From contig RHPI01001755.1 in assembly GCA_009103225.1 (NCBI GenBank), positions 1 through 5,007 of the forward strand: 5,007 nucleotides of DNA, read 5' to 3'. The translations under genes were made by a program, and so were the position numbers. A model generated the notes under the pieces. That model had not been told where the DNA came from, searched no databases, and saw only the letters and a program-made list of their open reading frames with translations. Positions 1 through 5,007 of this stretch are shown here, in pieces. The DNA is from Chlorokybus atmophyticus. Taxonomy: Eukaryota; Plantae; Mesostigma and Chlorokybus algae. The stretch's first letter is position 1, and each line of letters starts with the position of its first letter.

Positions 1-90
1 GGCGCTCATTGCTTGCTATGGTACACCCCAGGCCCGGTGGGGAGTTTCATTGTGTATTCACTTCTGTAGCGGGCGCCTCCCACATCCTCG

Positions 91-277
91 CCCAAGCACG
101 GTGTCAAGCTCTCCCTGCGTGTAGCGGCAAGCGCGTCATGGTGATGGAATGGGGAGACGCCACGGCCTCCCGCTTGTGGGTGTCTTTCCTTGGCATGCGT
201 CCGGAGGTTCTTCCCTTCGCTCGTGCTGCGTTGAGCTCCTTCGGTGTTCTGGGCGCTGCCCTCCCAAGCACGGTGTC
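91..277 (+). repeat. Exact 15-bp dispersed direct repeat cccaagcacggtgtc (91-105 and 263-277)
   Basis: Direct reading; the copies are 172 bp apart and lie in different codon phases. Confidence 0.85.
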
Positions 278-413
278 GGGAGTCAGCCCACCCTTTGAAA
301 CATCGTCCACCAGATATCGCTTCACCTTGTTTCCTGGCAAGGAACTCCCCCGCACCCTCTCCATACGAGTGCAGCAAGCGGGTGCATGGTTGACATATGC
401 GGTGGATGTCACT
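174..413 (+). other. RRM-like region of ORF1
   Basis: LWVSFLGMRPEVLPFARAALSSFGVL...TRYRFTLFPGKELPRTLSI matches the V.v.gvP......aL..fG.v...R.v......lP..l.i pattern that precedes the knuckle in L1/Tx1 ORF1. Judged by eye. Confidence 0.55.
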
Positions 414-434
414 TCCTTCTCCACCCCTCCTGTC

Positions 435-476
435 TGCCACGTGTGCTCCCGCCCAGGTCATACCCGCTTTCGTTGT
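435..476 (+). other. CCHC zinc knuckle (CX2CX4HX4C)
   Basis: CHVCSRPGHTRFRC in frame 3 has the exact spacing. Confidence 0.92.
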
Positions 477-2319
477 CCTCAGCGCCAGGGATTCCTCTGC
501 TCCCGCTGGAGATGCCTCCACCCGTGCACCCCCAGCGCAGAGAGGCGCCACACATCTCCCCACGCAGCGTCCTCCTCTCCAGCAGACGCAGCGAGCCCCC
601 ACCGCCACCGGTGATCCCCCCTCTGCTCCCTCTTCTTCACGCACCCCGGTGGAGGGGAGTGAAGACTCCGCCTCGATACCAGCCTTCAACGCTGCTGCAG
701 ATGGCGCTCAGCACGCCCTTCCTTCGGTAGGAGCAGCGCCTTCAACCTTGCAGGCCCTCGCCACCCTCTCTCGCCTGGACGACCAGCGCGCTATCGAACA
801 GTCAGCATGGCAGCAGGCGTCGAGGCGGAAGGGTGGGAAGCTGCAGGCGGCTACGAGCGTGAAGCCCATGGCCTCTACTCTTTCTCAGCCCTCGCTCGTG
901 CGATGGCTGATTCCCCCTACCGCTCGCAGGTCCACAGCATGGTGGGACATGGTGGAGGAGGAGGAACACGAGCACACGGACGTGACGGCGATGACAGACA
1001 CCCCCCCCCGTTACTCCTCGTGCTTCCACCCTTCTTCCCCCGGCAATTGGCTGGGTAAAACACGCCCTGCAAGAGGTGGGGGTGGATGTTGGCCTCGGCC
1101 CTATTGACACAGTTTTTGTTGTTCCGCTGCTGGGGAGCGGCCTGCTGGACTCAGACTCCCCGAGTGTTCTGCTATCCGACGCTGGGCAAGTTTCTGGCAT
1201 GCACGTCGCAAAACTCTCCCTCCCTGTCAACCAGCCCACATCACCAGCGTCCTGGCTGCGTGCCCAGGTGCGGGAGGTGCTGGGTGTGGTCGGCTATCCA
1301 CTCGACACGTCCACGGACGCGATGGACGTTGACTACGCCATGGGCAACATGCTTGCAGTCAGGGGCACAGGAAACAAACGCAAGGGGAAGTTGTACCTGG
1401 CTCCGGTGCTTTCAATGGCAACTCCCGACTTATCTCTTTCCTCTGCATTCATTCAGAGGTGGACCCCCCTGCATGAATGGGAGGCGTACTTGCTAGAAAG
1501 AGCAGCAGGGAGGGCTGCAACGCTGGGCCTTTCTCTTCATCAATCACTCACCGACTGGGGGGCTCAGCATTCAGCTCCGCGCTCAGCACCTCCTGCGGTT
1601 ACCTCACCCTCGATGGTTGGTCCTTTGGGCCCCTCTCCTCAGCCATCAGTGGTGAAACGCCTCTTTCCTGCCCTCTCTCCATCAGCTCCGCTGACGGCGC
1701 CACAATCTGCACTTTCTCCTCCAAGCCCCGCGCCAGCCATGGAGGTCCGCTTCGCTTCTCCACAGAAGACTTTTCCCACCCCGGAGCTGGTGTCCTTGCT
1801 TGTTGCACTGCGCTGCCAGGACGGGGAATGGTGGTTGGGGCTAGGACGCTGCAGCTCTCCTTCGCCCTTTCCCTTCGCCCTTGCCATGGCATCAACGGAG
1901 GGAGTAGAGCCGGAGCACCGTCTTCGCCAGCTTGCTGCTGATGCTATGCATCTGCCCGAAGCCACGGAATGGAGGGAGTGGGAGGCAGCTACCAGCTCCT
2001 TGTCTCTGCATCTGCAGGAGCACGCCGTCGGCGTTGGAAGAGTATGGGTGGTCTCGCCCCCACACCAGATCACAGTTACAGGCTCGGGCACGGTTTTGTG
2101 GGCTAATCTTCGCAAGCTTTTTCTGGTGGCGGGTGGCCTGGAGCCGCTAACAGCTCAAGCCTTGCAACAACAGCGTAAGCATGCGCAGCAGTTGTTGCCA
2201 CTGCCGCAAGGCGCGGACGACTCCCTTGTGGACGCTCTGCGCTGGGCTTCGACTGAGCCAGCAACGGTGCAGCTGCAAGAGCTGCTGGGTCTTTCGGCCT
2301 TTGAGTCGCTGCCGCCTTC

Positions 2320-2323
2320 ATGA
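2320..2323 (+). promoter_or_regulatory. ATGA start/stop overlap between ORF1 and ORF2 (candidate translational coupling site)
   Basis: ORF2 ATG is at 2320-2322 and ORF1 TGA at 2321-2323. The first endonuclease motif (WNVRG) begins at codon 10. Confidence 0.7.
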
Positions 2324-3079
2324 ATTCACCCTTACACGTCCGGCCTTGGAATGTGCGGGGGCTCGGAGGTTCAGCCTCTCACCTAGGTTTAAGCAAACGT
2401 TCGCTGCTGCTGCAACGCCTCCGTTCCTGGGGACTAGCAAGCTCTCTTTTTCTCCTATTGCAAGAAACTAAGCTCGGCCCCACTTCTGAAGCTGCATGGC
2501 TTCAGCGCTTCTGGCGGGGAGGTTCCTGCTGGTCTCCAGCTGCTGGCAGCCGAGGCGGGGTGGCCATTTTATTTCCTTCATGTCTTTCGCACCTGGTGAT
2601 CTCACAAGGTGTGTGTGTGCCTGCGCGCTGCTGTTGGGTGAAGCTGCGGTGGGATGGAGGCGTCCTGCTTCTGGCCTCGGTCTACGCACCCAACGAGGCA
2701 GCTGAACGCACTGCTTTTTTTGCAACTATATCATCCTCTCTCCCGGAAGCGGACTACTACATTCTGGGGGGGGGACTGGAATGTCACGGACAACCCCATC
2801 CTGGATCGCTCTCACGGGGGGGAGGACTTAAGCCCGTCTTCTCTCTCCTCATCCTCACTGCAAATGCTGCTCTCTGAGCGTGGCCTGGAAGACAACTTTC
2901 GTATTTTACACCCTCTCTCCATGGACTTCACATGGAGCAATCGCCGACAAGGTGCCGATCATAGAGCTGCACGCTTGGATCGTCTTTATGTGAGCACTGC
3001 CCTGCGGGAACTCACAGAGTCTTCAGAGGTGTGCTTAGGGGAAACACTTTCTGACCATGTCCCCGTCACCGTTACTCTT
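2320..3079 (+). other. APE-type (EEP family) endonuclease domain
   Basis: WNVRG, LQETK, SRGGVAIL, SVYAPN, GGDWN, FTW, RLDRLY and SDHVPV are all present in order, with catalytic N, E, Y, D, N, D and H intact. Confidence 0.95.
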
Positions 3080-4217
3080 TGCCCTACTGCAGCTGTTGAG
3101 CGTGGGCCCGGATGCTGGAAGTTAGACCCTACGCTGATGGCCGACACCCTCTTCCGCACTGACGTAGAAGACCTTTGGTCTACCAGATCTCAGCGCCGCC
3201 CCCAGCCGCACTTGATGGTAGAATGGTTCGAGGAAGGGCTCGAACAGGTGGCTGTCCTGGCCAGGCAGCACTGCACGCGCAGACGTGCTCTCCGCCATCA
3301 GTCAGACCAAGCTGTTCGAGCCCTGCTGGTGTCGGCTGAACGCTCCTTGTCCAGCTCCCCTACCAACGCCGCTCTGCAGGAGGAGTGCTCCTCGCTGCGT
3401 GGACAGCTTGCGAGGCTGGAGGAGGAGGCGGTGGAGGGTTCTTTCCTTCGCTTCAGCAGCGAATGAAGGCTGGAGGGTGAGAGAATGAGTAAATCTTTTT
3501 TTGCTAAAGGCAAGGCAGACAGGCAGCTCTTGCTCTTGCGTTCTCTCAGCTATTCCTTGCATCCGCATGATCCCCCCCTCACGGAGCAGGCAGAGATCTT
3601 GGAAGCAGCACGAGACTTCTACTGTTCTTTCTTTTCCTCCACACAGGTTGACCCTGTTGCTAAGGCTGATGCGTTGGCAACTTGTGTCGGCCATGTGCAA
3701 CCATCGGTGTCAGCAGAGGTTGCTCAAGGCTTGGACTTACCCATCACTATGGAAGAACTAGAAGCGGCCTTGATGTCCATGAACTCTCACAAAAGCCCGG
3801 GTATGGATGGGCTAACCGCCTATTTCTGGCAAGGCATGTGGCCCGTGCTCAAGGAGGACTACACTGCTTACTGCCAACAGGTGTTGTCTCGAGGGTATAT
3901 GGGCACGTCACAAGGAGTGGGTGTGATCACGATGTTGCACAAGAAGGTGACCTAGCCGATCTCCGCAACTGGCGTCCAATCACCCTACTCTCTCTTCACT
4001 ACAGGATACTAGCGAAGGCCATAGCCACTCGGCTTTCCCCTCTCCTTCCTGAGGTTCTCTCCGAGGAGCAAACAGGCTTTGTGAAACACCGCTACATATT
4101 AGACAACGTGCTCACAGCTCTGGATGCCATACACTACGTGAGTTCAACCAACCAGGATGTAGCCCTTCTTCTCTTAGACTTTATGAAGGCATTCGATAGG
4201 TTGGATTGGGATTTCTT

Positions 4218-4245
4218 GGAGCAGGTTATGCGGAGCAGGTTATGC
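4218..4245 (+). repeat. Perfect 14-bp tandem duplication (ggagcaggttatgc x2) causing an RT frameshift
   Basis: Units at 4218-4231 and 4232-4245, followed by gg. Removing one unit restores FLEQVMRLGFG. Confidence 0.95.
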
Positions 4246-4695
4246 GGCTTGGTTTTGGTGCAACGTTGTGTGGATGGATCAGAGTTCTCAATGGTGGGGG
4301 TCGCAGCCGAGTTTTGATCAATGGCCATCTATCCGAGGAGTTCTCCCTCCAACGCAGCGTGAGGCAAGGCTGCCCGATGGCCCCTGCCCTGTTTGTTCTT
4401 GCTACTGAAGCATTAGGTGCAATGCTGAAGTCCCATCCTGCCTGCAAAGGCTTGGCTCTTCCCTCATCTGGTGTTCTCCTTCCTGATGAAGACGCGTCAT
4501 TAAAAGATATCCGCTACTTTGCATTCGCAGACGATACTGCCGTGCTGCTGGAGGTATCGCCAGCAGCTTACGCGGCCTTCTTTTCTGTCATGCACTTGTA
4601 CTGTTTAGCCTCACACTCTGTCCTCAACCTCCCCAAGTCGGTTGGCATCCTACTCGGAGCAGCAGCACAGCGTCACCCTCCGGAGTGGGGGGTTA

Positions 4696-4721
4696 GGTGG
4701 CTTCACCGGGGGGAAGCCACC
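4696..4721. repeat. Perfect 9-bp inverted repeat with 8-nt loop (ggtggcttc accggggg gaagccacc)
   Basis: Arms at 4696-4704 and 4713-4721 are exact reverse complements. Confidence 0.85.
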
Positions 4722-4734
4722 ACGCTCTTAGGCG

Positions 4735-5007
4735 TACAAAGTTTGCCTCAACTGAATCACCCTACCAAAAAACTCATTTAAGTTATGATCCAGGACTCCG
4801 ACGCCAGCAGCAATTTGCTGACCGGCAACAACTGGTGAAACTTTTCTACCAGAAACTACATGGACAGCGCCTATGTTAAGATCCTTTTTAACGGCCACGA
4901 CCAATTCGCAGAACAGGGGGGTCTCACTGTAGCGCCATTCAACCCTACCAGCACCTGACGCCGCCTTCCCACGAAACGCATATACGTAGACTCGTTCGGT
5001 CTTTCGG
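4735..5007 (+). pseudogene. Fragment of a giant-virus (Nucleocytoviricota) major capsid protein gene, C-terminal jelly-roll, decayed; runs off the window end
   Basis: Stitched translation: YKVCLN/NHPTKKLI*VMIQDSDASSNLLTGNNW*NFSTRNYMDSAYVKILFNGHDQFAEQG/SHCSAIQPYQHLT/RLPTKRIYVDSFGLS. This follows the NCLDV MCP motif series (K.RLNFNHP.KELIWV, N.WFNFS, SAK...NGHDRF, YF..VQPYQHHT, P...IYVYSF.L) in order and with plausible spacing. Disablements: -1 near 4753, TAA 4779-4781, TGA 4836-4838, -1 at the G6 run 4916-4921, +1 near 4961. Confidence 0.88.

Follow-up and report, generated by a model that had tools for sequence, protein, structure and literature searches.

A decayed LINE joined to a capsid gene fragment

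The window, i.e. the whole stretch of 5,007 nucleotides analysed here, consists of a decayed LINE of the L1 type, with a capsid relic at the 3' end. The LINE parts lie in order on the + strand and in several frames, namely ORF1 with a weak zinc-knuckle match, the APE endonuclease and the reverse transcriptase. Judged from its translated sequence, an element with this order of parts is an L1-clade LINE, the clade name being given for the architecture alone. ORF1 is represented by a 5'-open piece with a CCHC zinc knuckle at 3..614 (+), where the Pfam zf-CCHC match (E 0.056) was below the cut-off. A 442-codon open frame, taken from the list of open reading frames, occupies 995..2323 (+) and is probably the remainder of a long ORF1. 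This frame had no match in Pfam, PDB or the Atlas. By eye it contains two stretches that are possibly, though vaguely, Nudix-like. Together with 3-614 and 394-1107, the 442-codon frame would give an unusually long ORF1.

ORF2 is frameshifted throughout its two regions. The APE endonuclease region (2305..3466, +) was recognised with Pfam Exo_endo_phos (E 2e-4 and 0.011, both under the cut-off) and by tblastn with the protein P0002. The reverse transcriptase region (3467..4737, +) was matched by Pfam RVT_1 with E-values of 2e-15 and 9e-7. A perfect 14-base tandem duplication at 4218-4245 falls on a frameshift of the reverse transcriptase. P0002 (1383 aa, 40% identity) was the sole LINE relative found and is full-length. 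The alignment to it ends at residue 778, window position 4736, and about 600 codons plus the 3' end of the LINE are missing.

The base composition changes where the LINE ends. GC content is about 49% in the relic versus 54-62% in the LINE, and the AT skew becomes positive from 4738. The CpG observed/expected ratio of the relic is 1.03, compared with 0.43-0.85 in 17 of 17 LINE bins. A eukaryotic setting beside a LINE had been proposed in the first-pass annotation, and an L1-type LINE does adjoin the relic.

The 3' part resembles the second jelly-roll of a giant-virus capsid protein

By its sequence, 4738..5006 (+) is a decayed second jelly-roll piece of a Nucleocytoviricota (NCLDV) major capsid protein (MCP). 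It corresponds to positions ~35-127 of 196 of PF04451 and reaches the window end. When frame +3 was searched with stops replaced by X, 14 phmmer matches were obtained among 1.84 billion representative proteins (best E 2.3e-8 at 42% identity). All except one, a repeat protein, carry PF04451 (Capsid_NCLDV; 13/14). Ten of the 13 capsid matches were aligned to the fragment in a frameshift-aware manner; scores were 110-148, and the alignments spanned up to 4738-5006. As a control for chance similarity, the best MCP (score 148) was aligned to 25 shuffles and 12 equal-sized LINE stretches, all of which scored 39 or less. These matches and scores bear out the NCLDV MCP origin that had been suggested by eye, and no cellular or transposon family explains the fragment better.

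A profile of 64 IMG/VR viral MCPs matched frame +3 alone among the six frames (E 3e-7); against the read-through with X at every break the same profile gave E 2e-16, which is a single-sequence E-value. The Pfam Capsid_NCLDV match to frame +3 alone was weak (E 0.013, 15.6 bits, cut-off 34.8). In PDB, the sole matches of the fragment were PBCV-1 MCPv1 (E 6e-4) and MCPv3 (E 4e-4) of entry 8h2i.

The motifs NHPxKEL, NGxDRF, QPYQHH and IYxYSF are found in that order in the window. As read in the first-pass annotation, NHPTKKLI*V, NNW*NFS, KILFNGHDQFAEQ and IYVDSFGL lie in frame +3 and IQPYQHLT lies in frame +2. The frame path 1-3-2-3 given there is correct; frame +1 holds just the lead-in KVCLN*, which had not been listed. 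The capsid homology assigned to 4735..5007 is real, but its onset is at 4738 and not at 4735.

The N-terminal jelly-roll (PF16903) is absent from the window, and the LINE occupies its place. Word-seeded searches with a single-frame read-through gave no match. Exact DNA patterns gave no matches in metagenome and viral contigs, using a pattern that covered two sites differing in the abundant version described below. A pattern common to all versions likewise gave none in the metagenome, viral and prokaryote collections, and a QPGSYNFSRI-type pattern had no viral matches. In addition, there was no match in phages or plasmids and no Rfam family, and the Atlas yielded nothing for the capsid piece.

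An abundant version of the fragment is present in public runs

The stretch is contained in five public runs (X1-X5) from three studies with three organism labels, dated 2018-2021; none of them is listed as an RNA run, and X4 and X5 are RNA by guess only. In X1 and X2 the LINE was matched nearly letter for letter, and 4755-5005 was matched by high-depth contigs. At window position 1000, near the ORF1 frame change, X1 carries one extra base, possibly reflecting an assembly error in the window. Related LINE copies matching 4512-4553, 4598-4642 and 4686-4725 were observed in X1, X2 and X5. The relative in X2 runs past 4725 as LINE, and that in X5 is a 3718-base contig with a depth of 17.

Contig depth in X1 was 7.1-9.2 for the LINE versus 94-99.5 for the capsid part, and in X2 4.6-7.6 versus 98.6. 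The abundant capsid version is thus found at 11-16x LINE depth in these two runs, where contig depth is no copy number and is taken just as a within-run contrast of adjoining contigs. In X3, X4 and X5 the capsid part was present at depths of 6.4, 43.6 and 48.7, and the window's LINE copy was missing. The abundant contigs are only 0.5-3.4 kb long. They extend without LINE by about 467 bases upstream and 600-650 bases downstream in X2-X4, and by 1420 and 1761 bases in X5. The upstream loose end, read by eye, continues as further capsid sequence in frame. For the bases downstream of the window, QPSG..NFSR had been predicted in the first-pass annotation. The loose end of the abundant version, again by eye, holds a degenerate QPGSY-like stretch in frame, which is one codon short of the prediction.

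The listed differences between the window and X1-X4 are at 7 sites, identical in all four runs, and there are no gaps; over 4755-5005 the differences number 9 in all (X2-X4). No listed difference was found among X1-X4 themselves. The X5 version has one more substitution, a 6-base tandem duplication and one frame break fewer. X4 and X5 bear one organism label, yet they carry different fixed versions. No diverged sibling copies were detected at 80% likeness on the capsid part in X1 and X2. Contigs drop rare variants, and the window's own 4802-5007 is missing from the X1 contigs.

The capsid gene is dead and most lesions are shared

The first-pass annotation had noted no long open reading frame. 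The open frame of a functional capsid gene is indeed lacking; the fragment carries three stops (4753, 4779, 4836) and three frame breaks and is a relic without function now. The stop at 4753..4755 (+) is also present in the abundant version, as read from the loose ends of the abundant contigs. At the same position (4753..4755, +) lies a frame break that only the window copy has and that was placed in 6 of 10 frameshift-aware alignments. The in-frame stops at 4779..4781 (+), a conserved Trp position, and at 4836..4838 (+) are not among the listed differences and are common to the abundant version. A frame break in a G run at 4917..4924 (+; 8/10 alignments) is likewise common to it, with 0 gaps in X1-X4. 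The last break, at 4955..4964 (+; 8/10 alignments), is common to X1-X4 and missing from the X5 version. Within 4772-5005, two stops and two frame breaks are therefore shared by the window and X1-X4, and the third stop lies in the loose end. A genetic code with TGA as Trp was considered as a rescue of the frame and rejected, since the frame breaks and a TAA persist.

Both partners are cut at the junction

The LINE/capsid junction at 4737..4738 (no strand assigned) is sharp. Base 4737 fits both sides, as judged by eye against the loose ends. Both the LINE and the capsid gene are cut internally at this point. No poly(A), target-site repeat or marking repeat was seen within the window. An X1 contig covering 3769-4801 crosses the junction with 64 capsid-side bases at a depth of 9.2 and without other letters. 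The junction is bridged in X1 only, which is possibly the source sample, and it is not seen in X2; there, 4576-4754 is not covered by the window's LINE copy, which carries no evidential weight. As expected of an endogenous element, the relic is thus joined to host-type DNA at single-copy depth, in X1 only and possibly in the source itself. The internal cut in both partners and the one shared base are compatible with end-joining at a break and do not resemble a transposon end.

The window copy is probably secondary

The window and X1-X4 share two states (4956, 4961) that are missing from X5, and the X5 states are more capsid-like. The window copy therefore appears to have split off after the X5 version. 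When X5 is taken as outgroup, the window copy accounts for 11 substitutions and the abundant version for 0; the window copy has also suffered one private 1-base loss. These 12 window-private events comprise 7 that are listed, 2 known by count and 3 taken by eye from the loose ends; of the 11 substitutions among them, 2 are known by count only and 2 were taken by eye from loose ends. C>T/G>A changes in the window account for 7 of the 9 visible substitutions, four of them at CpG. For the six listed C>T/G>A changes, enrichment at CpG was not significant (p 0.22). We also considered the T/A>C/G hypermutation outlined for Bigelowiella (10.64898/2026.01.13.699255), which misfits because the window changes are opposite in direction.

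At the informative amino-acid sites (4744, 4887, 4925 and the break at 4753), it is the window that shows the derived state. Taken together with the lesions common to the abundant version, this suggests that the gene was already dead when the piece was copied. The window piece is thus probably a secondary copy of a dead, high-copy capsid version. Against this, a consensus of a hidden, diverged nuclear family would give the ratio of 11:0 by construction.

From the directly observed capsid identity, lesions, LINE truncation, X1 junction and abundant version with other flanks, we infer the following order of events. Viral DNA would have entered the host lineage, and the capsid gene would have acquired three stops and a frame break. 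The dead gene would then have ended up on a high-copy, slowly changing molecule. An internal capsid piece would subsequently have been end-joined into an old LINE by DNA-break repair, with loss of the LINE 3' part. Finally, decay would have been faster in the single nuclear copy, with C>T/G>A changes predominating.

Location of the source

We tentatively place the source of the window piece in organelle DNA, with the mitochondrion as first candidate and a NUMT/NUPT-like route into the nucleus, and regard this as having nearly an even chance. An organelle genome would, with one assumption, account for the 11-16x depth, the lack of diverged siblings and the assembly in runs without the LINE copy. 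It would also account for the small tandem duplication, for the lack of CpG depletion and for the fixed haplotypes in two samples with one label. The uniform high-depth source, the diverged single copy and the C>T/G>A excess form a NUMT/NUPT-like pattern, which a family consensus predicts too. Several points speak against an organelle. The prior is low, the relic has a GC content of about 49%, and no organelle gene was seen in the 30-base loose ends shown of the abundant contigs. Moreover, some of the shared lesions are changes of the G>A type, which would fit a methylated nuclear phase at an earlier time, and the published NCLDV relics compared are nuclear in the accessible parts of those reports. 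The literature on giant-virus or capsid sequence in organelle genomes, covered at the level of titles and abstract openings and mostly outside subscription journals, contained no capsid relic. In its full form, the proposal is a capsid pseudogene in an organelle (probably mitochondrial) genome, segregating as haplotypes and passed to the nucleus as a NUMT-like, LINE-cutting insert; this is quite possible, albeit somewhat short of evenly balanced.

Alternatively, the abundant version may be a uniform nuclear repeat or multi-copy family, and the window would contain one of its members, joined to the LINE through a deletion or through ectopic repair. Such a family could stem from duplication of endogenous viral regions or from a transposon that had captured the dead gene, or it could be a repeat, either tandem or subtelomeric. 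We consider a nuclear family of any of these forms a serious possibility, if not one that reaches an even chance. It shares the entry of viral DNA, the gene death, the end-joining and the final decay with the organelle reading and differs only in where the source is located. Precedents are at hand: in Physcomitrella, 61 loci of >92% identity, some with a common disrupting mutation, are described in the accessible text of PMC4083422, and viral insertions that are duplicated and chimeric and have been invaded by mobile elements are described in that of PMC12210455 for Acanthamoeba. A consensus contig would account for the 11:0 asymmetry. However, neither X1 nor X2 showed a sibling of the capsid part at 80-95% identity, and the fixed differences between X4 and X5 and the lack of CpG depletion speak against a nuclear family. 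If X4 and X5 are RNA, which is a guess, a silenced relic at such depth would be unexpected.

A primary viral insertion, representing the edge of a larger element that was later struck by a LINE and lost 3' LINE sequence by deletion, is unlikely. The relic does reach the window end, so that more viral DNA may follow, and insertion of LINEs into viral regions is on record (PMC12210455, available portion). Yet the lesions are common to the abundant version elsewhere, and all polarisable differences are derived in the window. The simple insertion or edge of a large element envisaged in the first-pass annotation is not supported in that form, as the junction cuts both partners and the lesions recur in the LINE-free abundant version.

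A chimeric retrocopy is more doubtful still. Here the LINE reverse transcriptase would have started on a dead capsid transcript and switched to LINE RNA. Chimeras by template switching are known for mammalian L1, the LINE and the capsid piece have the same orientation, and X4 and X5 possibly represent RNA. The same orientation has even odds by chance, though, more than 4.7 kb of further synthesis would be needed after the switch, and no poly(A) or target-site duplication is visible in the window.

It is highly improbable that the abundant version belongs to an episome or a virus, persistent or latent, that lives in the cultures and carries a dead capsid paralogue. Giant viruses have several MCP paralogues (PBCV-1 MCPv1-5), and replication would fit the higher depth. 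Against this stand the identical dead sequence in 2018-2021 runs of three studies, contigs of 0.5-3.4 kb and the absence of exact matches from the viral and metagenome collections. An assembly or library chimera at the LINE-capsid junction is the least credible explanation: the junction is bridged in one run only, but the X1 contig crosses it with 64 capsid-side bases at single-copy depth and without other letters, and the 11 own substitutions of the window copy would be unexpected in a chimera of the abundant version.

Affinity of the virus

The best identities of the fragment in a set of 489 capsids were 36-44%. Of 464 C-terminal domains, 142 entered the first tree, and a subset of 45 was used again in the second. 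In the FastTree analysis (143 sequences, 192 columns), the fragment grouped with the MCPv1-like P0011, P0013, P0014, P0015 and L304 with a support of 0.79. P0014 is closer to PBCV-1 MCPv1 than to Vp54 (441 vs 303 bits). In the IQ-TREE analysis (46 sequences), the fragment was placed next to a group in which one capsid exactly matches that of an Algavirales AG_04 genome (support 65). The wider 36-member IQ-TREE group also contains IM_08 (support 35). The taxonomy rows were taken solely from the PMC8575486 supplement. The reference set is biased by the seed motif and by P0003/P0014 and comprises no irido-, asfar- or marseillevirus sequences. The two trees disagree on the nearest group of the repaired fragment, in agreement with the earlier caution that the lineage cannot be fixed. 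We would describe the fragment as a putative Megaviricetes-type MCP with a weak lean to Algavirales, both tree neighbours being Algavirales-like at poor support and with biased references.

P0013, P0014 and P0015 (780 aa) are MCPv1-like capsid proteins with long N-terminal insertions, and P0015 holds a YCF48/BNR-repeat domain within its first jelly-roll. L304 is a GC-rich viral contig in which an MCPv1-like gene and a likely dual-specificity phosphatase (HCRAG motif) lie close to each other (positions 1027-1521 and 3001-4527). The TGNN stretch of PBCV-1 MCPv1 is also found in the fragment. Identity to all relatives, PBCV-1 MCPv1 and MCPv3 (8h2i) included, is about 30-43%. A capsid that is about 40% identical to any relative found marks an unsampled virus.

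Implications and comparison with known systems

Giant-virus relics in algal and plant nuclei are already known, and NCLDV core genes including MCP are described from algal, protist and few plant or fungal genomes in the accessible text of PMC5294986. According to the available part of a recent catalogue, 781,111 viral regions occur in 7,103 assemblies (bioRxiv 10.1101/2025.04.19.649669); such regions are given for 168 streptophyte assemblies in survey data, as far as accessible. A nuclear relic is thus one more record of past giant-virus infection. What is new here is the abundant, uniform and already dead version that is the likely source of the relic; the second-hand origin of the relic is fairly well supported. 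If the source is an organelle, a capsid relic would reside in a compartment where our literature search found none, and nuclear 'viral insertions' could be second-hand. The pair of versions would also allow rates of decay to be compared directly between two compartments. A route from virus to organelle to nucleus would, if true, re-seed giant-virus DNA into nuclear genomes.

NUMTs are characterised by a uniform abundant source, a single diverged copy, an excess of C>T/G>A changes and a sharp junction. The window piece resembles a NUMT in these features. The Aureococcus mitochondrial genome carries virus-related dam/dcm genes (PMC7936722, accessible text). Those are methyltransferases of unclear donor and not capsid genes, and organelle residence of the present source is a proposal only.

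In Klebsormidium, Interfilum, Entransia and Cymbomonas, MCP and core genes branch with phycodnaviruses, as given in the available part of Gallot-Lavallee and Blanc 2017 (PMC5294986). The viral regions of these algae contain recognisable genes, and the same portion of that report mentions neither a LINE-fused secondary fragment nor a high-depth source. The Acanthamoeba insertions (PMC12210455, accessible part) are similar in that the copies are partial and 85-95% identical, have recombined and have mobile elements as neighbours. In contrast to those diverged copies, one version dominates here at 11-16x depth.

The NCLDV-like regions of Physcomitrella patens and Selaginella (Maumus et al. 2014, PMC4083422), as far as the accessible text describes them, are alike in their dead genes, many similar copies, common disrupting mutations and retrotransposon neighbours. 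According to the available part of PMC5294986, these regions are without MCP, have 34% GC and are pithovirus-like, whereas the present relic derives from a capsid gene, has about 49% GC and is accompanied by an abundant version that looks uniform.
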